IMG/VR virus record: IMGVR_UViG_3300026382_000010
Coordinates: 1 to 64,000 of that record
Reading direction: 5' to 3' (one strand)
Length of the DNA: 64,000 bases
From: a virus
Part shown: positions 3,599-18,819 of the stretch, one piece after another
Layout: each line of letters starts with the position of its first letter
Position numbering within the stretch: the stretch's first letter is position 1
The notes under the pieces: generated by a model
What the model was told of the DNA's origin: nothing
Database searches by the model: none
What the model saw: the letters and a program-made list of their open reading frames with translations, nothing else
Position numbers and translations under genes: made by a program

Positions 3599-4036
3599 TT
3601 ATTTCGTTTTTCGACGCCTACGTTTCTTAAAACCTTCATCTTGTTTCAATACTTTTCGTTCTTCCGGAGTTAAGATGCAAGTCCATATGAAATAAGCTTC
3701 CGATTCGGATGCGTCAGGTTTAATATATCTTCGAACCTTTTGTACGATTTCCTTTAGTTCCTTTTTTGGACTCTTTTCGTTTTTACCATAAAAGATTTTG
3801 TCTTTTTTTGTTAAATTGTATTGACGCACTAACTTTTTTGCTAGCTTCAAATATGAAATTGCTGGAGCATTTAATGTCTGATAGTTATTTAAAACTTGAC
3901 TGAAAACAGATAAGTATTCAGGATGTCCAATGTAACGCGGAATTATTTGTTTTACCATAAATTCATTTTCTAGTAATTCAGGTGTTAAATCGCCATCTTC
4001 AAATAGGAATTTATCGATTTGAGCAAAGATAGACAT
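3599..4036 (-). CDS. Possible clamp-loader small subunit (T4 gp62-like)
   Basis: Size, FMVKQII..VLNNY and SESEAY..ILTPEE patterns recall gp62-family proteins; replication context. Recognition from memory only. Confidence 0.4.
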   Translation of the reverse strand: MSIFAQIDKFLFEDGDLTPELLENEFMVKQIIPRYIGHPEYLSVFSQVLNNYQTLNAPAISYLKLAKKLVRQYNLTKKDKIFYGKNEKSPKKELKEIVQKVRRYIKPDASESEAYFIWTCILTPEERKVLKQDEGFKKRRRRKTK

Positions 4037-4061
4037 GAGACCCTCCTAATCCATTTCTTAT

Positions 4062-4913
4062 TTATAGGATTACAAAATCTTGCTCGGAGTATAGCAAATC
4101 TGAACTAAACTCCTCTTTTTTCAGCAGACATATTTCTTTATAAGGACAGAAATAACATTTGGTTTTTTCAATAAATGGATGATCGAGATTTGGAATTTGT
4201 TTTGTAGCTATTGCTTTTTGAATTTCATTAGCTTTATTTATACAATATTCTACATCGGAATCATTAGGATTATACTCAAATGTAAATACTTTGATAGCAT
4301 CTAGATTTCGCGATATATATAAAAGCTGTCCGTATTTTACAGGTTTTTGTTGTTCAGTTGCAAGTAAATACATATAGAATTTGAGCTGACGAATATGTTC
4401 AATCCGTCCAGTAAAAGACTCGGATTTCAATTCATCAGCCTTGATTGTTTTGATTTCAATGACGTTATAAGAATTGTCATCAAGAATATTAATTGCATCA
4501 ATTCTACCTTTTACTTTAAGTTGCTCTGAATAAATTTCATGCTCAACGTAATCAAATCCAAGCAGTTGTTGTAAAAACTGATGAACAAACTCTCCAACTG
4601 CGGTAATAAGTCCCAAGTATGGATAAACGGATACATTACACTTATCGTAATTAAAGTACTCAAATAAAATTTGACGAATACATTTGGAAGTTAATGAGGA
4701 TACGTATATATAGTCTTTATAAAACATTGAATTCTTTTGCGTAAGTTGAGAATACTCCTTGAGAGCATTTAAAATGTTTTCTTCATCTAATAATTTGGCG
4801 ACATTTGACTGATGCGAAATATCGACATTTATATTCGGCTGTATACTAGATTTTTGCGTTTCTTTTTTCAGAATTCCCGCTTGAATATAATCCAGCAAAT
4901 TTTCTAAATTCAT
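4062..4913 (-). CDS. Cas4-like PD-(D/E)XK exonuclease with 4Fe-4S cluster (solo, phage-type)
   Basis: KCIRQ, GEFVH, GRID...IEIKT, QLKFY, CYFCPYKEIC. Start moved to ATG 4913 (GGGAG RBS). Confidence 0.9.
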   Translation of the reverse strand: MNLENLLDYIQAGILKKETQKSSIQPNINVDISHQSNVAKLLDEENILNALKEYSQLTQKNSMFYKDYIYVSSLTSKCIRQILFEYFNYDKCNVSVYPYLGLITAVGEFVHQFLQQLLGFDYVEHEIYSEQLKVKGRIDAINILDDNSYNVIEIKTIKADELKSESFTGRIEHIRQLKFYMYLLATEQQKPVKYGQLLYISRNLDAIKVFTFEYNPNDSDVEYCINKANEIQKAIATKQIPNLDHPFIEKTKCYFCPYKEICLLKKEEFSSDLLYSEQDFVIL

Positions 4914-5383: not shown

Positions 5384-6512
5384 CAATATTCTCCTCAAGC
5401 AATTGAGTTTCTAGATTTTTCGAAGTTTCAATTTGTTTACGTAATACTTCTTTTAACGTTTCGACATGTTCATCAAAAACTTCCTTGAATTTTGGATCGT
5501 TTTGATAGTACTCATATGCTTTTTTCAAATGGAATTTTTTAGGATACCCTTCCATAGAATAATAGCCACCCGATGCTCCTACTACCTTTAATACATCTCT
5601 CAAATAGAGGAAATTTGTCCAAAATTCACTAAACCCATTTGCATAATCTAAAACCATGTAAAATGGATGAAATGGTGCAACGTATTTGTTCTTCAGAAAT
5701 TTACATTCGGTAATTGCTCCTTGAAATCCAAAACTTCCGGATTTATCAGGTTTTAATTGAGTATACGGTTTCATAAGTAAAACTGAGAATGCTGCAAATA
5801 TTTGTGCTTTACCACCAGGTATTGATTTGTTTTCAAGCCCAGGTAAATTAATCTCGTTTATACCATCAAAAGGCCCAAGCTTTGGTTTCTCTCTAAGCTG
5901 ATTCACTGCAAGTAGTGTAATATTGTATTGTGCAAGATAACCAGTGATAGTTCTAAAGAAAGCTGATAAAATTCTAGCATTCAAACCTAGTGTTTGATTT
6001 ATATCATTTGTCTTTAATTCTTTTTCACTTGGTGTTTGAGCAATAGAATCCCATACGATAATAGTTGGGACTTTAAGATAAGAAGGATCCTTTTTAATTT
6101 TTTCACGTTTAATTGCAATGATTCCCTCAATAGATTCCATTACCTTTTCGAGTGTAATACCTGCATCGCAATATAATACTTTATCAAGTTTTACACCAAG
6201 TTGTTGAAATCTTTTACGGGACATTGCAGCTTCGGTGTCAATTATAAGAATTATTGCGTCTTCATATTTTCTTTGAATTGCTGATACGCATTGTAATGCT
6301 AAAGTAGATTTACCTGCACCAGGATTTGCTAAAAACAAATGGAATTTCCCTAAAGTTATACCACCTCCGCTGTAAATGTCAAATATTGTCAAATTTGTCG
6401 GAATTAAAATATCGTCGTCCTCAGCTTTTTTTCGAACTGGCAAAGATTTGGATTGTAATAAGTCAACTATTTCATCGTATAAATCTTCAGATTGTTTTCT
6501 AGTCTTCGCCAT
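5349..6512 (-). CDS. uvsX: RecA/UvsX-family recombinase
   Basis: Walker A NPGAGKST, IDTE, Walker B IIVWDSIA, VNQLRE, PGGKA, KNK. Confidence 0.93.
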   Translation of the reverse strand: MAKTRKQSEDLYDEIVDLLQSKSLPVRKKAEDDDILIPTNLTIFDIYSGGGITLGKFHLFLANPGAGKSTLALQCVSAIQRKYEDAIILIIDTEAAMSRKRFQQLGVKLDKVLYCDAGITLEKVMESIEGIIAIKREKIKKDPSYLKVPTIIVWDSIAQTPSEKELKTNDINQTLGLNARILSAFFRTITGYLAQYNITLLAVNQLREKPKLGPFDGINEINLPGLENKSIPGGKAQIFAAFSVLLMKPYTQLKPDKSGSFGFQGAITECKFLKNKYVAPFHPFYMVLDYANGFSEFWTNFLYLRDVLKVVGASGGYYSMEGYPKKFHLKKAYEYYQNDPKFKEVFDEHVETLKEVLRKQIETSKNLETQLLEENIDDRDTNNSETT

Positions 6513-6864
6513 CATCACCTCCAATTACTGTAATCGTTTTTTGTAGTTGAGTTAAAATACGAGGATCAAGTTTGACTTGATCCTCAGATGTATCTAATTT
6601 CGATAAAAGCTTGATTTGTTGTAAACGTGTTGATATTGCTGTGGATTGTAACTGTCCAAAAATTCTCAATAACTCAACGTACATTTCATTTTGATTCATT
6701 ACATTCTTACTTTTATATGCATAATAGCTGGTGTCGCGTTTATCTGACAAAATCTGTTTTTGCAAAGTTTGTAGATTACTTTTAATTGTTGAAAGCATTT
6801 CATCAATATCGGATAATCTATTATCCAAATCTTGCATATATTCATCTAGTTTTTTATTTTGCAA
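6499..6864 (-). CDS. Coiled-coil hypothetical protein
   Basis: 121 aa, AGGAGG RBS before TTG. Confidence 0.6.
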   Translation of the reverse strand: MQNKKLDEYMQDLDNRLSDIDEMLSTIKSNLQTLQKQILSDKRDTSYYAYKSKNVMNQNEMYVELLRIFGQLQSTAISTRLQQIKLLSKLDTSEDQVKLDPRILTQLQKTITVIGGDDGED

Positions 6865-6878
6865 AAGAATTCCTCCTT

Positions 6879-8315
6879 TTATACGAGATGTTTTTGAATT
6901 TGTTTCATGTTAAATAGTTGCTTTCGAATTTGAGGCAATAAATGCTTTGCTCTAGGTAGAAAATCATAGAAAATTTTAAGCTCGTAGGCTAAAGCTTCAG
7001 CACGTACTGTAATTAACTTTTGATTCAAGAGATCCAAGTATGTATATCTACATACATTTGTGATAAATTTATGCCAATACTGAGTTTCTTTTGTATAGCG
7101 TTTAAATAGGTTATTTGGATGCTCATACAATTCATCTAAAACATTTTTGATTCCGGTTAATTTAACACGATTTTTCAACTGCTGCTTTACATTTGATGTC
7201 AATAATCGTGGAATTAATTGTAATTTGGCAAAGCGTTTAAGAAAATCGCTGTAATAAAGTACTAAAATTGCACTTTCTTTTTTAGTAAACGGCAATGAAA
7301 CAGTTTCACCAACCGTATAAGTTATTAATGGCGCTACAAATGTATCAAAAAACGGTTTGTTAAAGTTATATTGCTCGTAAAATACAGAGGTTTTCATACC
7401 ATATGTCTTTTCTAAATACTGCATCATATACATCAAATATTTATCGAAAGCAACCTTTAGGCAATAGTCAATATTTGCCTTATAAAAATCATCAAGTTCT
7501 AAATAAGTTAGCGAAACTTGATATACGTCAGTGTATAGGTAATACAGCTGACGACTCAAGAAGTCAATTACAAAACCAATGGGATTATAACTTTTATGCA
7601 TAATAGGAAGAATGTAAAAAAGAATGTTGTAGAAAAATTCGGAAACTACGTAATCTTCGTCTTTAAGCATTACTTCGGATAAAAATTTCCAGATGTTTTC
7701 TCTATTTTTCTTAGAACCGTATACTCTTTGTTTTACGATCACAAAAAGTTTATCAAAAACTCCATGTTTTCGTAAGGGTTCTAGTAAAGTTTCTGTTATT
7801 TTAGTATGCAATCCTGGTGAAAATTTTTTGGAAGTGTAAAAAATTAAACCATATAACTTCATCATCCAGGCATATTGAATCAATAAAAGACTATCTTCCT
7901 CATTTATCTTAACTTTTGCACGAGTATTAGTACGAATTTTTAGTTTCACATTTGGTAAATAATAAGTTTCGAGATATTGCTTTAGGAAATTAAACCCTGC
8001 AAATAAAATGTCAGAGAAAGTAATTTCGTCAATCCAAGAGTTTAAATATAGGTAATATGAGTAGAGAAATTGCTTTGCAAAATCAGGAAACTTCTCGAAA
8101 AAATCATCCAAATCGCTTAAAATATACGGACGAAATTTCCGAGTGATTTTTTGCTCTAATTGAACGGTTACATCTTGTAAAGTCTCGTAAGGATAATTTA
8201 TTCCGTATTCATCGCATGCATACTCATAAATCGACTTACGTGTAGAATCAGTTACACCAACATGTAATCGATACCCTCTGATATTAAACGAAAACCCCAA
8301 AGTCTCATAAAACAT
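6879..8315 (-). CDS. Large helical protein; possible jumbo-phage non-virion RNAP specificity subunit (AR9 gp226-like)
   Basis: ATG 8315 with AGGAGGT RBS. DKLF..V..RV..S....NIW and NIL..ILP....NPI.F...QL.Y patterns recall this family; the family call is tentative. Confidence 0.4.
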   Translation of the reverse strand: MFYETLGFSFNIRGYRLHVGVTDSTRKSIYEYACDEYGINYPYETLQDVTVQLEQKITRKFRPYILSDLDDFFEKFPDFAKQFLYSYYLYLNSWIDEITFSDILFAGFNFLKQYLETYYLPNVKLKIRTNTRAKVKINEEDSLLLIQYAWMMKLYGLIFYTSKKFSPGLHTKITETLLEPLRKHGVFDKLFVIVKQRVYGSKKNRENIWKFLSEVMLKDEDYVVSEFFYNILFYILPIMHKSYNPIGFVIDFLSRQLYYLYTDVYQVSLTYLELDDFYKANIDYCLKVAFDKYLMYMMQYLEKTYGMKTSVFYEQYNFNKPFFDTFVAPLITYTVGETVSLPFTKKESAILVLYYSDFLKRFAKLQLIPRLLTSNVKQQLKNRVKLTGIKNVLDELYEHPNNLFKRYTKETQYWHKFITNVCRYTYLDLLNQKLITVRAEALAYELKIFYDFLPRAKHLLPQIRKQLFNMKQIQKHLV

Positions 8316-10273: not shown

Positions 10274-10903
10274 GTGAAAGCTGCAGATGTAATGAGAATT
10301 TTGCAGATTAGTCGATCAACTCTCTGGCTTTATGTGAAACAAGGAAAAATCAGAGTCAGAAAGTTGCACAATGGTAGATACGATTATAATGATGAAGATG
10401 TCTGGAAACTTGCTGGTAAATGTAAGGAAAGAATGAATGTGATTTATGCAAGAGTTTCTACTCATAGCCAAAAAACCAGTTTAGAGAGTCAAGTTAAGCA
10501 ATGCGAGGAATACTGTAGAGCTAATGGGTTAACTGTACATAAAGTTTTTAAAGATATCGGATCTGGTATTGACTTTGAAAAGCGAAAACAGTTTATGCAA
10601 ATGTTTGAGTTAATCAAGCAATTCAAAGTTGATAAAGTAATTGTTACATACAAAGATCGCCTATCTCGTATTGGATTTGAATTTTTAAGAAAAGTTTTTG
10701 AATCATACGGTACTAAAATAGTAGTCATCAACGAGTCTAAGTATGATGATGAAAAACTTGCTGAAAAAGAAATCTTTCAAGAATTAATTTCAATTATTCA
10801 CTCTTTTGCAATGAGACTTTATAGCAATAGAAAAAAGAGACTGAAATTACAATATTGCGAAGAGGAGCTAAAGCATGAGCTCAAATGTGATAAAAGTACA
10901 TAA
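10274..10903 (+). CDS. tnpA: IS607 serine transposase
   Basis: N-terminal MerR-like HTH, IYARVST catalytic Ser, DIGSG, YKDRLSRIGF, IIHSFAMRLY. Confidence 0.95.
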   Translation: MKAADVMRILQISRSTLWLYVKQGKIRVRKLHNGRYDYNDEDVWKLAGKCKERMNVIYARVSTHSQKTSLESQVKQCEEYCRANGLTVHKVFKDIGSGIDFEKRKQFMQMFELIKQFKVDKVIVTYKDRLSRIGFEFLRKVFESYGTKIVVINESKYDDEKLAEKEIFQELISIIHSFAMRLYSNRKKRLKLQYCEEELKHELKCDKST

Positions 10904-12569
10904 AGCATTGAGGTTAACCTCAAAGTATGCAAATAAAGACAAAAAACAATTCATTTTTCAAATACTTGATGATGTCAAACGTATGAAAAACCAAATGTCT
11001 GAATTTATGTATAATCGAATTCATGAATTAGTTGAATGTTTGGAAAATAAAAAGAAGAAAAGTCAATTTATTGGTAATTACAAACAATGGAAACACTCAG
11101 TTCTTCCAGCGCATACTATTCAAACTTTATTTTCCGATGTTATGACTTGCTATTTGAATCACATCAAGCAACTTATTAATAATGCGAAAAAGAAAATTCG
11201 CATTCAATCTAAACTAAATATTTCAAAAAGAAGTCAACGTATCTCTATTGAATTTAAGAAATCTCCTTTATGCAGATTAATATCGTATTTATTATCACTA
11301 TCCAACTTACAAGAATACACTTCTTTTTCACATGTAGAAGCCAAACTTATAAGCAAAGAGTTGCAAGAATTTTGGCAAAATCTCTCTTTCAAAAAGAAGA
11401 TGCTTGTTATAAATATTGTCAATAGCAAAATTCAGAGAATACTAAAAAGAATCAAACGTATTCAATTTACCTCTGGAAGCTTCAGATTAACCGCTTCTGG
11501 TTACTCTTACGAAATTGTGAAAGATGAAGATAATTCACTTTTCAAATACTTTTTAAAACTAGCTTTCAAATCTAAATCTATCTATCTTCCACTGCTTTTA
11601 GAAGATAATCCTAAAAACAAAAGAAGCAAAAAGTACTTTCAAAGAATACTTACTGGAAATTTAAAAAAGCAAATCTTTTTGATTGACCGAAGAAATTCTA
11701 CAAATAGTAAGAAACTCTTTTTTGTAGTAGTAAGCGAAGAAAATTTGACATTTCATGAATTTGGAAAATTTGTTGGATGCGATGTAAATCTAACATCTGA
11801 AAAGTTTCTTACATTCTCCAACGGATTTTCCGTTGAATTTGATAAAAGATTTCTCAAAGAATACCTCTCGTTTTTAGAAGAAATCGATAGAAAAGGATAT
11901 CGTAATCTGACTAAAGATGAAAAGAGAAAACTGAGAAAATATACAAAAAGAATTGAGTGGTATATTGAGTTTCTCATTGCAAATGTTATAAACAAACTCA
12001 AACAACTTGGATATACAGATATAGTACTTGAAGATTTAGATTTATTTAACAATGGAAAATTTTATGTTAATCTCTTTGGATACAAAATGAAACTCAATAG
12101 ATTTGTAAGATTTCTCAGACTAACTGGATTAAAGGAAAAATTCATTCGTATAGCTCATAACCGAGGAATTAGAGTACATTTAACACACTCCGCATATACT
12201 TCACAAATGTGTCCTTGTTGCGGACACATTTCTAAAAAGAATCGAAAAAGTCAATCTGAGTTTGTATGCGAAAAATGCGGTTTCCAATATGATGCTGATA
12301 GAATTGCTAGTGTAAATCTTTTACTAAGAATCAAACATAAAGAAATTTGCAAAAAACTTCATACTCAAACAAAGGATACTAAAGAATTCAGAGCAAAACC
12401 GATGACCTCTAGAAGTATTTTGTCAATCCTTGAAAAGTATTTTGATTTTATGACATTGTCTAAATTACTGGTACAGTTGGTAGATGTTCTACCAACTGAG
12501 TTTCTTGCTAGATACTTTCGACATAAACGTATGATTTTATGCGGGTTTCATCATGCGGTTTCCCGATAA
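10875..12569 (+). CDS. tnpB: TnpB RNA-guided RuvC nuclease, long form (564 aa)
   Basis: RuvC-I VGCDVN, RuvC-II VLEDL, Zn finger TSQMCPCCG...CEKCG, RuvC-III DADRIASVN. Confidence 0.92.
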   Translation: MSSNVIKVHKALRLTSKYANKDKKQFIFQILDDVKRMKNQMSEFMYNRIHELVECLENKKKKSQFIGNYKQWKHSVLPAHTIQTLFSDVMTCYLNHIKQLINNAKKKIRIQSKLNISKRSQRISIEFKKSPLCRLISYLLSLSNLQEYTSFSHVEAKLISKELQEFWQNLSFKKKMLVINIVNSKIQRILKRIKRIQFTSGSFRLTASGYSYEIVKDEDNSLFKYFLKLAFKSKSIYLPLLLEDNPKNKRSKKYFQRILTGNLKKQIFLIDRRNSTNSKKLFFVVVSEENLTFHEFGKFVGCDVNLTSEKFLTFSNGFSVEFDKRFLKEYLSFLEEIDRKGYRNLTKDEKRKLRKYTKRIEWYIEFLIANVINKLKQLGYTDIVLEDLDLFNNGKFYVNLFGYKMKLNRFVRFLRLTGLKEKFIRIAHNRGIRVHLTHSAYTSQMCPCCGHISKKNRKSQSEFVCEKCGFQYDADRIASVNLLLRIKHKEICKKLHTQTKDTKEFRAKPMTSRSILSILEKYFDFMTLSKLLVQLVDVLPTEFLARYFRHKRMILCGFHHAVSR

Positions 12570-12632
12570 TTTAATTTTCGAATGTTTTCGAATATTTCAA
12601 AATAAAAACCGGATGTCATAGTGATTCAAAAA
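12440..12632 (+). ncRNA. Putative TnpB omegaRNA (scaffold over tnpB 3' end and right end; guide from flank)
   Basis: Perfect 11-bp hairpin CAGTTGGTAGA-tgt-TCTACCAACTG (12474-12498) and CGGG/CCCG pairing near the stop; position as expected for TnpB systems. Boundaries approximate. Confidence 0.55.
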
Positions 12633-12655
12633 TACTAAAAGAAGGAGGCGTTATT

Positions 12656-12973
12656 ATGGAGTCTATTCACTGTGAAATCCTCGAAAACCTTTGTAATACT
12701 ACATGTAATCCTAAACTTGTAGACATTTTTCAGCTTTTAGAGGAATATCTGAAACCTTTTTCTAAAATCTACTACGGCATATCGCAATCCGAATTTACAA
12801 TTTACCATCCTAATTTCAAAATCACTATTCGTTGCATTTCTGAAGAACCTTTTGAATTTGTCCTCGATTATAACAACAAGGAGTTATTCAGCACTACTGA
12901 CATAAATAAAGTAATAGAATTTCTGGAGTATACTTTATTACCAGACTACGAAATGGGCTTTATCTCAGATTAG
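12656..12973 (+). CDS. Hypothetical protein
   Basis: 105 aa, AAGGAGG RBS. Confidence 0.7.
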   Translation: MESIHCEILENLCNTTCNPKLVDIFQLLEEYLKPFSKIYYGISQSEFTIYHPNFKITIRCISEEPFEFVLDYNNKELFSTTDINKVIEFLEYTLLPDYEMGFISD

Positions 12974-13054
12974 TCAATTTGCATAACATAATAATGCATC
13001 ACTGAGAGCTAAGATGTATTGCTAAACCTTTGAATAGCAAGGAGGATTAAGAAA

Positions 13055-14605
13055 ATGAATAAGTATCACCAGATTATCCACGAGTTTATTAAAAACACAG
13101 ATATTGCAAGAAATAATGCAAATTTCATCAGATCTCTCCCAGCTCTTGAACATGTAGTTGTCGGCGAGGTTATGAAAGACTATCTCTTTAATCAAATTTA
13201 CAAAGGGTTACCAGTTAGAGAGCATCACGAAACTGGTTGGACTTACCATCATCAAGCATTTAAATTATCACCTTACTGTATTGGACTCTCTGCAAAAGAT
13301 GTTGCATTTTATGGTTTGAAATCTAATGCTAAAAATGCTAGAAATGGTAAACCTCCAAAACGTCTCGAAACTCTTTTTATGCAATGTGCAAATTTAATTT
13401 GTTTGATTGCACAAGAAGTATCAGGTGCAACTTCATTAAATGACATTAGTACAGTTGCTGCAGGGTATTTATGGTATCTTGAAACAAATGGAATTAAAAC
13501 GTACACAGATTACGAGTTGATTAATATCTGGCAAGAATTTCTTTTCAACATAAATCTTCCATTTCGCTCAGGCAACTCTCCATTTAGTAATATAACTCTT
13601 GAGTTTGGAAAACCAAATAAAATTCTCGCAAAACACAATGTAATTTACGCTGGAAAATTACTTGATAAGACTTATTCTGAAATTCCAAGTGAGTATTTTG
13701 ATAGAATTAACGATGCATTTATTGAGGCAATGAAAATTGGTGATGGAAATGGAAATCCGTTTACATTTCCACTAATTACAGTAAATATCACAGAAGATTT
13801 TGATAGAAATAATCCAATTTGGAAAAAGCTACTTAGAGAATCAGAGTACTTCGGTGGATTTTATGTGCAAAACTATCTCAAAAAGCCATTTCTTGAATCT
13901 GAATATAAAAAATACAATCCAAATATGAGACCGTTTGATGAAGACATGATATATAGTAATTGTTGTAGAATGCTATTTAATGTCTCCACAGTTGAAGCAG
14001 TTACAGGAAGTAATCCTTTTCACTCTGGAGCAGGAGTTGGTGGAATAGGTGTATATGCAATAAACTTAAACAGACTCCTATTTCTTGCAAAAGACAATTT
14101 CGAGCTTTTGAAGGAGATGCTTTCCTATTTAATGGAAATTGGAGCAAAAGCATTACAGAGAAAAAGAAAATGGATTATGCAACACTATGAAGACTTATAT
14201 CCATATCTTTCATTTTATCAAAGAACAGATAAATCCCTCTTCAATATCTTTTCAATTGTAGGTGGACATGAAGGTATGGTTAATGCAGGATTCAAAGGAG
14301 GGCTTGCAAATCCTCAGGCAAAAGAATACGCTCACAAAATCTTACAATTCATTCATGAAAAACTTAATGAATTCATGGAAAGAGATAAGGTTTTATATTC
14401 ACTTGAATATGCTCCTTCAGAAAATGCCGCAGTAAAACTTGCACAAAAAGATTTACAATTTGCATATCAAATTGCTCAACTTATAAACAACAATCAAAAG
14501 TGTACTCTATTTCATGATGAAAAACTCAATGACTTTGTAAATAGAGCAATAGAAATCCATGGTGAAAAAATATTTGACATACCAGAGGGAGTAGTGCTAG
14601 AATGA
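13055..14605 (+). CDS. nrdD: Class III (anaerobic) ribonucleotide reductase, N-terminal part
   Basis: SPYC, QEVSGA, SPFSNITL, PFTFPLIT, SNCCR, INLNRL, APSE. Lacks the glycyl-radical C-terminus. Confidence 0.92.
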   Translation: MNKYHQIIHEFIKNTDIARNNANFIRSLPALEHVVVGEVMKDYLFNQIYKGLPVREHHETGWTYHHQAFKLSPYCIGLSAKDVAFYGLKSNAKNARNGKPPKRLETLFMQCANLICLIAQEVSGATSLNDISTVAAGYLWYLETNGIKTYTDYELINIWQEFLFNINLPFRSGNSPFSNITLEFGKPNKILAKHNVIYAGKLLDKTYSEIPSEYFDRINDAFIEAMKIGDGNGNPFTFPLITVNITEDFDRNNPIWKKLLRESEYFGGFYVQNYLKKPFLESEYKKYNPNMRPFDEDMIYSNCCRMLFNVSTVEAVTGSNPFHSGAGVGGIGVYAINLNRLLFLAKDNFELLKEMLSYLMEIGAKALQRKRKWIMQHYEDLYPYLSFYQRTDKSLFNIFSIVGGHEGMVNAGFKGGLANPQAKEYAHKILQFIHEKLNEFMERDKVLYSLEYAPSENAAVKLAQKDLQFAYQIAQLINNNQKCTLFHDEKLNDFVNRAIEIHGEKIFDIPEGVVLE

Positions 14606-14688
14606 TAAGCAAAATTCTATTTGTATTGGGAGTTATAGTAGGTACACTATTTGCACTTTCGCAGATTTTATTTTCACGCAAAAAATAA
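14602..14688 (+). CDS. 28-aa single-TM microprotein
   Basis: ATGA overlap with nrdD-N stop, GAGGGAG RBS; MISKILFVLGVIVGTLFALSQILFSRKK. Confidence 0.55.
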   Translation: MISKILFVLGVIVGTLFALSQILFSRKK

Positions 14689-14712
14689 ATAGAAAAAGGG
14701 AGTATTATAGCT

Positions 14713-15411
14713 ATGTATTTGGATAAAGAAACGATTTTAGTTGCCGATTACATTGTAACTTATAAAGACGAACCAAATACTGCATCGCTTCTATTTCACA
14801 TTCCTGGTTTAATTTGCAATCTAGATTGCTATAAATGTCACAACAAATATTTTTCAAAGCAAAACAAAAAACCTTATTACACTTACAATGAACTCAAGGA
14901 TATTTTAAAGAAAGCAAAACTTATGCAAATTGAGTCTATTATAATTTCAGGAGGAGAGCCAACTCTCCTCCTCTCTCCTTTAATTGAACTTCTGGAGTTT
15001 ATAAAGGATTTCGGTTTTAAATTTATCAGAATTGATACAAATGGTACAAAACCTGATGCAGTAAAGTATTTACTTGAAAAAGCGCTTGTAACTCATTTTG
15101 CAATTGATGTAAAGATTCCACTGGATGTAGAAAATAGTCGATGGCATGAAAATTTAGAATTATGGGATCAAGTTTTATTTTCAGGTAAAAAGAAATTTAG
15201 TGAAGTAATCGAATATACAATAAATCTTAAGCAAACCTTTGAATATCTTAGGCTAGCAAAAAACTTGCTAAAACGAAGAATTCTATTGAGAACTGTAAAA
15301 TACCCCCAATATACCCCACATATTCTAGATTGGATATATCAGAATATTACCGAACTTGAATTTCCATATGAATATCAGGTTAATCAGTTTTATGAACCAG
15401 AAAAACTTTAA
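14713..15411 (+). CDS. nrdG: Anaerobic RNR activating radical SAM enzyme
   Basis: CNLDCYKCHN, ISGGEPTL, IDTNGT, AIDVK; lies between the nrdD halves. Confidence 0.88.
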   Translation: MYLDKETILVADYIVTYKDEPNTASLLFHIPGLICNLDCYKCHNKYFSKQNKKPYYTYNELKDILKKAKLMQIESIIISGGEPTLLLSPLIELLEFIKDFGFKFIRIDTNGTKPDAVKYLLEKALVTHFAIDVKIPLDVENSRWHENLELWDQVLFSGKKKFSEVIEYTINLKQTFEYLRLAKNLLKRRILLRTVKYPQYTPHILDWIYQNITELEFPYEYQVNQFYEPEKL

Positions 15412-15435
15412 GAAAATCAAGGAGGAAACGCAGAA

Positions 15436-15951
15436 ATGGTAAAGCCAAAAATGTTTGTATCAGGTTCTGTTGATGGACAAAGAGTATTCTTAACCTCTGG
15501 ATTTCAAGCGCCATCTTCAGCTCCATTATTTGAGCAAATAGATGTTGCAGCACATTTTCAATCTTACGCAACAGGTGGAGCAATTTTGCATCTTTTTACA
15601 GTTGAAAATTTAAGCGAGAAAGAACAAGAGGATTTAATCTTCAGAATATTTGAAAACTTCCCAGTGCAATATATGACTAAAACTCCATTTTTAACTGTAT
15701 GCAACGAATGTGGACATAAAGCTGTAGGATTACATCATGTATGCCCAAATTGTAGAGGAACAGATGTTACGCTCTACTCTAGGCCAATTGGATATTTTAG
15801 ACCAGTATTAAGAAAAGAAATATCTGCAGACTTATCTGATGCTCGCTTTAAATTCTGGCTTGACGGTAGAATTGAAGATTTTAGAACCAGATACAGAGTA
15901 AGTAAAAAAGACGTTGAAAGTATTGTTGAAGAACTCTCTTCTATCTCCTAA
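15436..15951 (+). CDS. nrdD: Class III RNR, C-terminal part (Zn ribbon + glycyl-radical loop)
   Basis: FLTSG, ATGGAILH, TPFLTVCNECG..CPNC, YSRPIGYFRPV; own AAGGAGG RBS. Confidence 0.92.
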   Translation: MVKPKMFVSGSVDGQRVFLTSGFQAPSSAPLFEQIDVAAHFQSYATGGAILHLFTVENLSEKEQEDLIFRIFENFPVQYMTKTPFLTVCNECGHKAVGLHHVCPNCRGTDVTLYSRPIGYFRPVLRKEISADLSDARFKFWLDGRIEDFRTRYRVSKKDVESIVEELSSIS

Positions 15952-15961
15952 GTCAACGAGT

Positions 15962-15999
15962 AAAAAAGGATCCTCCCCGAAAAGGGGAGGATCCTTTTT
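15962..15999. terminator. Bidirectional terminator
   Basis: AAAAAGGATCCTCCCC-gaaaa-GGGGAGGATCCTTTTT between convergent genes. Confidence 0.92.
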
Positions 16000-16005
16000 G
16001 TCTTG

Positions 16006-16383
16006 CTAAAATAGCGTAAGTAAACTCAAAATACAGAAAATAGTATTTCCAACAAGCGCTGCAAAGTATGTAAATGAATTTGGATAAACAAGTGCAATTG
16101 TGAGAAGCAAAATTTGTATAGAGATTAATGTAAGTGCAAGTTTTAGTTTTGTAAGCAGTTTTTGAAAACGAATCATACTGTTAAAACTTGCGTCTTGTAA
16201 GGTTTTAGTGTTCTTTTCAGTGATTTTTCTTAATAATGCTAATGCTTGTTTTAAATCCGAAATTTCGTGGTGTAAAGTATCTGTACTAGTTTCAACATGT
16301 TTTAAAGTACTATGAATCTGCGCAAGTAAGTCATTTTGAGATTCAATTAGACGATAAATACTTGGTTGGTTTTCGAAATTCAT
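16006..16383 (-). CDS. Coiled-coil protein with two C-terminal TM segments
   Basis: Heptad pattern followed by a hydrophobic C-terminus. Confidence 0.65.
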   Translation of the reverse strand: MNFENQPSIYRLIESQNDLLAQIHSTLKHVETSTDTLHHEISDLKQALALLRKITEKNTKTLQDASFNSMIRFQKLLTKLKLALTLISIQILLLTIALVYPNSFTYFAALVGNTIFCILSLLTLF

Positions 16384-17357
16384 GTCCCTCCTTCCTGTGC
16401 TGCTTTTTTAATACCTTCCTCAAATTTAGACAACCATTGGTCTAACATTTTCATAACAACGTCTTCCTCGTCCTTTAATTTTTTTGGGAGGAATAGAGGT
16501 TCTATCAGCATTTTAGAGATAACGGCTCCAAAAGTTTTCCAAGCAACATTTATAATAATTGCAACTAAATTTAGTTTAGCTTTTTGTAGCAGATAGATTA
16601 TTAGTTCGATGAGAATATCTAATCCTTCTACTGCAGTGTATGCATAAAGTGGCGATTGTTTTGGATTTGGTTCAGTAAAAATATTTCTTCCAAATTTTAA
16701 AACGTATTCTGCAACTGCACTATAAAGTATAGCATATTTTCCTAGTTCAGCCTGAGCCGATTTCTGTAACACACTACGTTTGTAGTACTCAAGCAACGTA
16801 TTAAAAATTTTACGTCCAATATATTGCAAGAAATATGCAAGTTCAAGTTTTAGCATACGTAATGTATGTAGAATTACATGTTCAGTTATAGTAGGAACCC
16901 ATGCAAAAGGAGCAATTATAGCTAAAGCTAAATCTCTAAATGCAATATCAAGGTAAGCATATTTTACTGCAAGCTCGATATCAGTTGTTTTATAGCGATT
17001 AAGTAGACGATTTTTGATTGGAGGTATTTTATCAACGAGTTTTGCAAGTAGTTTTAAGTATGTACGATAAAAGTCTTCAATTTTTTTACTTACTGCTAGA
17101 AGAAGGAGACATACAATGATAACGAATTTTTCAATGATATTTAGATCTGCCAAATATGAGGCAACGATGAGGGCTTTATCTAGACGTCCAAGTTTTTCGA
17201 TTTTCTTTTGTAGTTTTTGTAAACCTTCTTCTGTAGTCATCAATTTTCTGATTTCTTTAGATGTCCAACCTGCCAATTTTTTATCTCTTAACGCTTTGGC
17301 AATAACTTTACTAGATGTAAAACAAAAACGATTAAGTTTTAATAATGCTTCGCTCAT
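16380..17357 (-). CDS. Membrane-associated hypothetical protein
   Basis: 325 aa with several hydrophobic helices; coupled to neighbours. Confidence 0.65.
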   Translation of the reverse strand: MSEALLKLNRFCFTSSKVIAKALRDKKLAGWTSKEIRKLMTTEEGLQKLQKKIEKLGRLDKALIVASYLADLNIIEKFVIIVCLLLLAVSKKIEDFYRTYLKLLAKLVDKIPPIKNRLLNRYKTTDIELAVKYAYLDIAFRDLALAIIAPFAWVPTITEHVILHTLRMLKLELAYFLQYIGRKIFNTLLEYYKRSVLQKSAQAELGKYAILYSAVAEYVLKFGRNIFTEPNPKQSPLYAYTAVEGLDILIELIIYLLQKAKLNLVAIIINVAWKTFGAVISKMLIEPLFLPKKLKDEEDVVMKMLDQWLSKFEEGIKKAAQEGGT

Positions 17358-18819
17358 ATTCTCTTACCTCAATGCATTCTTTGAACATCAAAAGTTTTTG
17401 CATTGATTTTGGAAGTGGAATATTATACTTTTCAAAGTAGTCTAAAATAAGATGCGGATCTACGTAGTATTTAACAGCCGTCGTCCAAGTAGGTTTTTCA
17501 TTGTTAATATGTCCTAAAGTTTTTCCTACATCAAGCATAACCTGTTTAAAGTATTTTAGATGCACTTTTGGATCGTCTATATTTTTATATGGATTTTCTT
17601 CAAAAAGATATTTGTATGCTATAGCTGAACCCTTTAGATGTCTGAATTTATGTGCAGTAATTGGTAGCCCAATTCTTTTACGTAAATAATCATTTAATTT
17701 CTGGGCTTTGAATGTAAATACTCTTTCACTTGGCTTTTTGTTTTTAATAAGCTCTTTTAGGTATTTTACAAGTTTTGGATCGTCAATGATATGAGTTTGT
17801 ATAATTCCTTTTTTACCAGGATAACGAATTACACATTTTTTATTGTCACATTTTATATGCTTGCGTAATATTGTAACTAAACCGAATGTATCCTTTGTTT
17901 CAGTACCAATACGTGCAGCAGTTTGATAAAGTAGCTCTGTTGCAAGAGCCATTTGCTTAATTATCGGATCTTTTGATTCTAGATCCTTTAACCAGCGCCT
18001 TCTATATTTTTCGATGTTTTTAAGTAGGTACTTTAGTTTTTCAGTGTATCCTTTGACAACGCGTTTCTTGTAATCTTTTGTATAACAGAATTGCCAGGAT
18101 TTACCACCGATAGGTCTAAATTTTAAAACGTAGCTATCGTCTTTTTCAGGATTGTAGTCTTTGTTTATTTCAATTTCAACGTGAATTAAAGGAATATTAC
18201 AGTCGAGTTCCTTTTTGGTTTTACATACATATAGTTTTAACTGCGCGTCGATACAAATTAAATTGGTATCAACTAAAACTGGAGGATAACCCAGTTTTCT
18301 AAGTTCCCTATTGAGCGTCTGAATAGAAATATACTTCCACTTATACTTATGAAACAGGTATTGAATTGCGTATTTCAATTTTTTAACGAGATCCTGTTTT
18401 AATTGCATATACTCAGGTTTTAGTTTATGTTGAGCCAGTTTCTGAATATCAACTTCACCCTCTTTACTTGATGAGTCTATTTTTTGGGCAATTGAGTATA
18501 ATTGTTTTTGTAGTCGTTTTATAACATCAGGTTTCGGAAACTTTTCGCTATATGTTAACTTATACGTTTTTAACAAGTGAATTAGTTGTATGATTGTTTC
18601 TTTGTCATATATTTGCTTACGATGTATTTTGTACAGCAACTCAACGATGTTGTATAAATTATATTCGAATTTACAATTTTTACGAAAACTGGATATGGCT
18701 GCTTTAAATTCTTCGTCGTTGAGTTTTGGTTCAGTTTTAACTACACAAAATCCTGAATTTTTACAAATATGATAAATCAGATAATGAATTAGATGCTTAC
18801 CTAACGTCTTGCATTGCAT
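17332..18819 (-). CDS. DNA topoisomerase IB (bacterial/viral type) with N-terminal extension
   Basis: Catalytic pentad: AARIG, PGKKG, AHKFR, LGH, KYYVDP; also TFGLVTILRKH. Confidence 0.85.
   Translation of the reverse strand: MQCKTLGKHLIHYLIYHICKNSGFCVVKTEPKLNDEEFKAAISSFRKNCKFEYNLYNIVELLYKIHRKQIYDKETIIQLIHLLKTYKLTYSEKFPKPDVIKRLQKQLYSIAQKIDSSSKEGEVDIQKLAQHKLKPEYMQLKQDLVKKLKYAIQYLFHKYKWKYISIQTLNRELRKLGYPPVLVDTNLICIDAQLKLYVCKTKKELDCNIPLIHVEIEINKDYNPEKDDSYVLKFRPIGGKSWQFCYTKDYKKRVVKGYTEKLKYLLKNIEKYRRRWLKDLESKDPIIKQMALATELLYQTAARIGTETKDTFGLVTILRKHIKCDNKKCVIRYPGKKGIIQTHIIDDPKLVKYLKELIKNKKPSERVFTFKAQKLNDYLRKRIGLPITAHKFRHLKGSAIAYKYLFEENPYKNIDDPKVHLKYFKQVMLDVGKTLGHINNEKPTWTTAVKYYVDPHLILDYFEKYNIPLPKSMQKLLMFKECIEVREYERSIIKT

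Follow-up and report, generated by a model that had tools for sequence, protein, structure and literature searches.

We detected an anaerobic (class III) ribonucleotide reductase (RNR) whose catalytic subunit, NrdD, is encoded by two separate genes in a 64,000-nucleotide stretch of viral DNA (hereafter the window). The window is part of the 106-kb IMG/VR virus record IMGVR_UViG_3300026382_000010, which is judged ~49% complete. A 516-amino-acid (aa) open reading frame (ORF), nrdD-N, and a 171-aa ORF, nrdD-C, divide the protein between them, and nrdG, the gene for the radical S-adenosylmethionine (SAM) activase, lies between the two. The sequences and a predicted structure make it probable that these genes encode a functional two-chain class III RNR, in which NrdD would be an obligate two-subunit protein served by its activase. 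The split appears, from sequence comparison, as a lineage trait of Desulfurobacteriaceae-type vent bacteria and not as a phage invention, since it is common to this whole family of hydrothermal-vent bacteria.

Two chains that together carry a complete NrdD

The Pfam family NRDD (PF13597) is divided between the two ORFs: model positions 2-432 of 562 match the 516-aa ORF (E = 2.4e-63) and positions 437-546 of 562 match the 171-aa ORF (E = 1.9e-20). This bears out the first-pass annotation of the window, made from the sequence alone, which had read NrdD as two ORFs with nrdG between them; the four same-strand ORFs that it named are all present, with 516, 28, 232 and 171 aa, and are listed below. 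The NCBIfam NrdD models divide in the same way (NF006126 on nrdD-N, E = 2.2e-84). Neither half, being a fragment of the whole protein, reaches the NCBIfam whole-protein (equivalog) cut-offs.

Eight of the ten barrel strands are in the large chain, together with the NxN flap (N21, N23), Cys75, the Cys303-Cys304-Arg305 finger-loop motif and the APSE motif; an ATP-cone is absent from it. The small chain carries the zinc ribbon (Cys89/92/103/106), the glycyl-radical loop R116-P-I-G119-Y120 and two C-terminal helices. The final two strands of the barrel and the helices that go with them also belong to it. The break sits ~110 residues before the radical glycine. Both chains were aligned with 65 relatives, either fused or read through, in which 62 residues are invariant. 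Sixty of these are kept over the two chains (40 of 40 in nrdD-N and 20 of 22 in nrdD-C), including Cys75, Cys303/304, Arg305, N21, N23, the four zinc cysteines, and R116 and Y120 around Gly119. The two changes are conservative (S to A and S to G).

Placed end to end, the halves are colinear with fused relatives of ~660 aa, with no segment missing. Against one fused protein (P0088), residues 6-503 of the large chain align to 7-506 and residues 7-160 of the small chain align to 503-661. Only ~13 residues of the nrdD-N tail and ~6 of the nrdD-C head lack a counterpart in fused relatives, and the residues flanking the break are the same as in those relatives. The last ~55 aa of nrdD-N, previously taken for an extra tail, proved to be ordinary subfamily sequence, which alignment indicates is an insertion relative to Pfam and to the NrdD of Thermotoga maritima that is older than the split. 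Since the large chain up to residue ~503 and the small chain from residue ~7 align with fused relatives, the tail was not gained with the split.

In the window the gene order is nrdD-N, a 28-codon ORF, nrdG, nrdD-C, and 830 nt, holding nrdG, separate the two halves of nrdD. Both halves are preceded by the same strong Shine-Dalgarno (SD) sequence, AAGGAGGA, with a spacer of 9 nt at nrdD-C, in agreement with the strong ribosome-binding site that had been ascribed to the second ORF. The product of nrdG is a radical-SAM protein whose best NCBIfam match is NrdG2 (TIGR02495; E = 3.6e-22, 78.7 bits against a curated cut-off of 131), and it is 36-42% identical to the nrdG product encoded 5' of nrdD-N in Desulfurobacteriaceae loci. 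A search of the whole 106-kb virus record found no further NrdD piece and no full-length NrdD.

The features of the locus are as follows (window coordinates, strand in brackets):
12656..12973 (+): 105-aa ORF directly 5' of nrdD-N, with a strong SD sequence, AGAAGGAGG
13055..14605 (+): nrdD-N, large subunit, 516 aa; Pfam NRDD and NCBIfam NF006126
14574..14603 (+): sigma-70-like promoter match, a candidate, inside the 3' end of nrdD-N
14602..14688 (+): 28-codon hydrophobic ORF of uncertain status; its ATG overlaps the nrdD-N stop codon (ATGA)
14713..15411 (+): nrdG, radical-SAM activase, 232 aa; Pfam Radical_SAM and Fer4_12, CxxxCxxC motif
15436..15951 (+): nrdD-C, small subunit, 171 aa; Pfam NRDD 437-546 of 562, own strong SD sequence
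15971..15988 (both strands): hairpin with a T-run; terminator-like matches on both strands

Predicted structure of the two-chain enzyme

For structure prediction with AlphaFold2 (AF2) we used the halves from a Desulfurobacterium metagenome-assembled genome (MAG; L014), which are 70% and 59% identical to the N and C halves of the window, with 64 fused relatives as the alignment. The two L014 genes share a reading frame, with TAA-TGA-GAG between them, and the stops were read as glycine to give a fusion. The read-through fusion was predicted as a confident ten-stranded NrdD barrel fold, with a mean predicted local distance difference test score (pLDDT) of 87.4 and a predicted template modelling score (pTM) of 0.90. 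Its only long low-confidence stretch, residues 508-521, is exactly the junction. The best Foldseek matches to the model are all NrdD (Prevotella copri, T. maritima, Streptococcus thermophilus and phage T4; TM-score ~0.7, E down to 1.6e-24), at an identity to solved NrdD structures of only ~15-17%.

The part of the model that corresponds to the small chain closes the barrel with two helix-strand units and further comprises a short beta-hairpin, the zinc ribbon, the radical loop and a terminal pair of helices. The small chain of the window, predicted alone, shows the same elements (pLDDT 78.9) with residues 1-21 disordered; the models weakly suggest that these first ~21 residues could act as an interface element. 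In the NrdD of P. copri the glycyl-radical domain was defined as the last ~64 residues, and it is highly mobile (PMC11226230). The small chain of the window is therefore equivalent to that domain plus ~85 residues of barrel core. The first-pass annotation had proposed a heterodimeric RNR with a separate radical module; a conserved two-polypeptide enzyme with an activase is what we found as well, but the small chain is more than a radical module, as it supplies two barrel strands.

The same break in Desulfurobacteriaceae and in other viruses

A search with the small chain returned more than 40 clusters of stand-alone homologues of 167-180 aa (47-66% identity), among them proteins from Thermovibrio and from Desulfurobacterium thermolithotrophum, whose genome is complete. 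Aligned with one another, the homologues show 35 invariant columns and a mean column identity of 73%, and the zinc-ribbon cysteines and RPIGY of the 171-aa ORF are invariant in this alignment too. The break is in the same place, residue for residue, in 15 Desulfurobacteriaceae-type loci (the N half is present in 12 of them) and in five other viral loci. The window halves are 72-73% (N) and 58-64% (C) identical to those of Desulfurobacteriaceae. Among 178 Aquificota genomes, ~27 (Desulfurobacterium, Thermovibrio and relatives) show a pattern of one ORF matching NRDD positions 2-427 and another matching 436-547. These genomes show only N and C pieces of this NrdD type; the remaining Aquificota genomes have fused NrdDs of this or other subtypes. 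For the nearest cellular clade the break is routine, an outcome that the first-pass annotation had said would lower the novelty of the split.

In the cellular loci nrdG comes first, followed by nrdD-N and nrdD-C, and the SD sequence and ATG of the small gene are nested within the final codons of the large one. The overlapping halves mostly stand in relative frame +1, and in some loci in frame 0 (through an in-frame stop) or -1. The varying frames, together with the SD-ATG-stop overlaps, identify the halves as coupled separate genes and not as the product of a programmed frameshift.

N-half homologues with at least 50% identity to the window are all 486-543 aa long, and fused forms appear only below ~46% identity. 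In a FastTree tree of the N region (midpoint rooting), the window falls inside an all-split clade of 36 rows (support 99), adjoining cellular Desulfurobacteriaceae rows. This clade spans 50-77% identity to the window and has no fused member. Two further short-form groups (~509-561 aa) cluster with 12 fused sequences.

One lineage from activated sludge, represented by three contigs (L024-L026), has a permuted order: nrdD-C (4001-4489), ~1 kb, nrdG (~5546-6031) and nrdD-N (~6224-7726). Its N half shares ~50% identity with cluster P0109 (33 members, in the second short-form group) and its C half is cluster P0173 (14 members). From such an arrangement neither splicing nor read-through could restore one continuous chain, and the halves must therefore act as independent gene products.

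The closest viral relative is an independent contig (L019) with the same order of nrdD-N, nrdG and nrdD-C as the window. Its N half is 78% and 68% identical to that of the window over two segments, and an HNH intein follows the Cys-Cys motif; its nrdG directly overlaps the end of nrdD-N, and the small ORF is absent. A further contig (L012, G161:C1; 84.6 kb, phage-like or mobile-element-like) encodes a 172-aa nrdD-C alone (L012:5001-5519), with no nrdD-N or nrdG within 5 kb and no nrdD-N elsewhere on the contig or in its 1.4-Mb bin. This contig has a G+C content of 38.5%. It carries a sigma-factor-like gene and encodes helicases (phrog_62 and phrog_1967), a primase, nucleases of the VRR-NUC and SNase types and several DNA methyltransferases, one of which contains an intein. 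Deposited phage genomes gave seven distant matches; the one inspected, from Clostridium phage FA67, is a full-length 656-aa gene.

A candidate distant split form, from a MAG labelled Candidatus Peribacteria (L018), was rejected. Its NrdD frame (G003:C40:503-2305) is open for 632 aa except for 28 in-frame TGA codons, which show that TGA is read as sense, so the gene is fused. TGA as a sense codon is unexpected for this taxon label.

No published description of this NrdD split was found by searching the full-text literature or in RNR phylogeny papers, a survey of phage RNRs (PMC3653736), the paper on the genome and proteome of Thermovibrio ammonificans (PMC5441870) and a 2026 review of glycyl-radical enzymes (PMC13450708). 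The two-gene NrdD of Desulfurobacteriaceae is annotated in databases, and we found no description of it in searchable papers.

Function and origin of the split enzyme

In the enzyme that we propose, the 516-aa chain would supply the substrate flap, the catalytic cysteines and the larger part of the ten-stranded barrel. The last two strands would come from the 171-aa chain, which would complete the barrel with them, carry the zinc ribbon and insert the Gly119 radical loop into the barrel, and NrdG, using S-adenosylmethionine, would put the radical on Gly119. The two chains probably assemble physically, as an alpha2-beta2 complex, and we infer that the complex is active. The gene may have been broken once, in a common ancestor of the phage and Desulfurobacteriaceae enzymes and at a disordered surface loop of the subfamily-specific insertion, and nrdG would then have moved between the halves in the lineage of the window and its closest viral relative. 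Such a shared origin with the host clade, like any selective benefit of the split, is our interpretation of the comparisons above. The phage enzyme belongs to an already split lineage, which points to exchange between the phage lineage and a Desulfurobacteriaceae-type host.

Several points weigh against this reading. The evidence for the two-chain enzyme is from sequence (gene anatomy, colinearity, conservation and distribution) and from a predicted fold. The structure model represents an artificially joined homologue and not the two chains of the window as a complex. The nrdG product scores below the curated NrdG2 cut-off. With the virus record about half complete, further RNR genes could lie outside it. 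The history of the family may be either one old fission, with later re-fusion, or several fissions at the same loop.

Whether the split brings a benefit is a separate matter, and we give slightly less than an even chance to a neutral origin without functional consequence, a sub-case of the two-chain enzyme in which a stop codon or frameshift in a permissive loop became fixed because a start codon and an SD sequence were available, and the two chains fold up as the one chain had done. The position of the break, in a disordered surface loop of the subfamily-specific insertion, speaks for such an origin, as do the unchanged flanking residues and the neighbouring positions of fused and split forms in the tree. 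Set against it are the persistence of the split through the whole 36-row clade and its survival through changes of gene order in the phages and the sludge lineage; both, however, fit neutrality and benefit alike.

A more specific benefit would follow if, as the first-pass annotation had inferred, the small chain were replaceable: a renewable cartridge for the radical, exchanged on a surviving large subunit after O2 has cleaved it at Gly119, so that 171 and not 687 residues have to be made again. The radical glycine does lie on a separate chain with its own strong SD sequence, and the near-consensus promoter match just 5' of nrdG and nrdD-C could allow separate expression. The mobility of the radical domain in P. 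copri (PMC11226230), the contig that carries nrdD-C without nrdD-N (L012), and a 2026 review that calls spare parts for glycyl-radical enzymes beyond pyruvate formate-lyase (PFL) yet to be determined (PMC13450708) also fit the idea. We nevertheless consider it improbable. Unlike GrcA, the small chain holds two barrel strands and helices, and its exchange would therefore need the barrel to unfold partially or open. The overlapping cellular genes look coupled for 1:1 synthesis, and no second copy of the small gene was seen in the phage record or in genomes of the host clade. There is also no full-length NrdD there to rescue, the small chain being the only source of the radical loop, and the orphan copy of L012 may reflect incomplete assembly. 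It is just as doubtful that NrdG activates the free small chain before docking, or that a phage small gene could re-arm the large subunit of a host, as the orphan copy of L012 would suggest.

No splicing element or artefact at the break

The halves of nrdD might also be rejoined, by RNA splicing, by protein trans-splicing through a split intein or by programmed frameshifting. There is precedent, as among the RNR genes of phages introns and inteins interrupt nrdD more often than any other (PMC3653736), and true inteins do occur elsewhere in this gene family. In-frame inserts of ~1.0-1.26 kb lie exactly at Cys75 and after Cys303-Cys304 in several nrdD-N genes of Desulfurobacteriaceae and viruses (L003, L006, L011, L013, L015, L019 and L020), and precomputed Pfam annotation of insert-bearing proteins (P0056, P0057 and P0066) gives Intein_splicing and HNH_3. 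Real inteins were found in the relatives only at these two positions, and the window copy has none.

At the break itself, the evidence largely refutes rejoining, which we regard as very improbable. A group I or group II intron was rejected, as Rfam gave no match at gathering scores in the whole window, nor at E<=10 in positions 12500-16500; in the cellular relatives there is no room for an intron because the two ORFs overlap. A split intein or homing endonuclease was rejected as well: no intein junction residues (HN/Cys-Ser-Thr) and no homing endonuclease motif were found at the break of the window, and an intein is ruled out there because only ~13 and 6 residues are unaccounted for. Programmed frameshifting or read-through is contradicted by the relative frames of the halves, which vary among loci (+1, 0, -1), and by the loci in which nrdG or other genes intervene or the order is permuted. 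These results uphold the first-pass annotation, which had seen no intein ends, homing endonuclease or frameshift scar.

A decaying pseudogene or an assembly artefact, which could be suspected from the IS607-type element (TnpB ORF, 10875-12569) just upstream and from the metagenomic origin of the record, is refuted by the conservation data, with both halves intact at 60 of the 62 invariant residues and the split conserved in complete bacterial genomes. An assembly error, which had been named as an outcome that would overturn the split, is unlikely in particular because the independent contig L019 has the identical N-nrdG-C layout and the exact nrdD-C protein is on record on three contigs.

The spacer and the flanking genes

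The window has features of its own in the 107-nt spacer between nrdD-N and nrdG, namely the 28-codon ORF and the promoter-like site. The ORF encodes one predicted transmembrane (TM) helix and a C-terminal RKK, and an SD-like sequence, GAGGGAG, lies 10 nt 5' of it. Its maximal 19-aa Kyte-Doolittle mean (2.46) is the highest of the 159 ATG ORFs of 25-45 aa in the window. The overlap with the nrdD-N stop codon and the hydrophobicity agree with the earlier description of a translationally coupled TM peptide, but the peptide is not conserved: it gave no match in IMG/VR with a degenerate pattern and is absent from L019. We give it about an even chance of being a real microprotein, and nothing that we found connects it to the reductase. 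The idea that it is a duplicated relic of the nrdD-C start was rejected, as local alignment was no better than with shuffled sequences; the in-register identity to the 5' end of nrdD-C (21 of 42 nt), equalled by 168 of 63,955 windows, gives a weak hint only.

The promoter-like site comprises TTGACA, 18 nt and TG-n-TAGAAT, matching 11 of 12 consensus positions plus an extended -10 TG. It is the only sigma-70 match of at least 11 of 12 on either strand of the 64-kb window; composition-matched simulations average 4.7, and the window overall seems depleted in strong sigma-70-like sites. The final 30 nt of nrdD-N contain the site, and the ATG of the 28-codon ORF shares nucleotides with the -10 element. 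As a consensus match only, 14574-14603 is a candidate internal promoter for nrdG and nrdD-C. If it is functional, the transcript of nrdG and nrdD-C would start 3' of the ATG of the 28-codon ORF.

The hairpin at 15971-15988 sits between nrdD-C and a convergent gene (16006-16383) and is, from its sequence, likely a bidirectional terminator that closes the nrdD operon. At the other end, the 105-aa ORF may be the first gene of the nrdD transcription unit. Pfam places it in no family, and as it lacks a CxxC motif it cannot readily be called a redoxin; it lies just 3' of the TnpB/IS607-like element. That element contains a 564-aa TnpB/Cas12f-like ORF (10875-12569, plus strand; Pfam Cas12f1-like_TNB, IS607-type). 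On the 3' side of the RNR cluster the window encodes a 495-aa type IB topoisomerase (17332-18819, minus strand; Pfam Topoisom_I), an enzyme unusual for a tailed phage. The G+C content of the window is ~31%, and its proteins are mostly novel, with a few phage-type helicase matches.

Comparison with known systems and significance

To our knowledge, all characterised class III RNRs have a single-polypeptide catalytic subunit, with the radical glycine on the active-site chain. The single-chain NrdDs of T. maritima (4COI/4U3E), P. copri (8P2S) and phage T4 (1HK8) share with the window the fold, the NxN flap, the catalytic cysteines, the four-cysteine zinc ribbon, the RxxGY loop and an adjacent radical-SAM activase. 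The window differs from them in its separate 171-aa chain, in the position of nrdG between the halves and in the absence of an ATP-cone. The two-gene NrdD of Desulfurobacteriaceae has the same break point, two chains and nrdG in the cluster; it differs in the order nrdG-N-C, in its overlapping, coupled N and C genes and in the inteins of several copies, whereas the window has the order N-nrdG-C and the 107-nt spacer. To the clade-wide split the window adds the order N-nrdG-C, together with the small ORF and the promoter-like site.

GrcA is a copy of no more than the radical domain of PFL, and it occurs alongside a full-length PFL with a radical domain of its own. Like nrdD-C it is a small stand-alone radical-glycine protein, presumably activated by the cognate radical-SAM activase (GrcA/YfiD; PMC8683613, PMC13450708). 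In the virus record of the window, by contrast, there is no full-length NrdD, and the small chain provides the sole radical loop and adds barrel strands. Phage RNR genes in more than one ORF have been described before: nrdA of Aeh1 (mobE insertion), nrdD of T4 (group I intron), nrdJa/Jb of phiYS40 and the nrdD fragments of phiAS4 (PMC3653736). They share with the window an RNR catalytic subunit in more than one ORF in a phage, but at the break in the window there is neither a mobile element nor an intron or intein. A cellular clade has the same break, which was not created in the phage, and the point is not one of those that PMC3653736 lists.

A two-chain NrdD is a natural system for asking how the activase reaches a glycine buried in the barrel and how mobile the radical domain must be. 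It also bears on whether glycyl-radical enzymes other than PFL use replaceable parts, which is yet to be determined (PMC13450708); an exchangeable small chain, if true, would be the first case of spare parts among glycyl-radical enzymes beyond PFL. For annotation, the split matters because proteins of 170-180 aa are labelled as a full "anaerobic ribonucleoside-triphosphate reductase" or left unnamed. Finally, the split links a large uncultured phage to Desulfurobacteriaceae-like hosts of hydrothermal vents.

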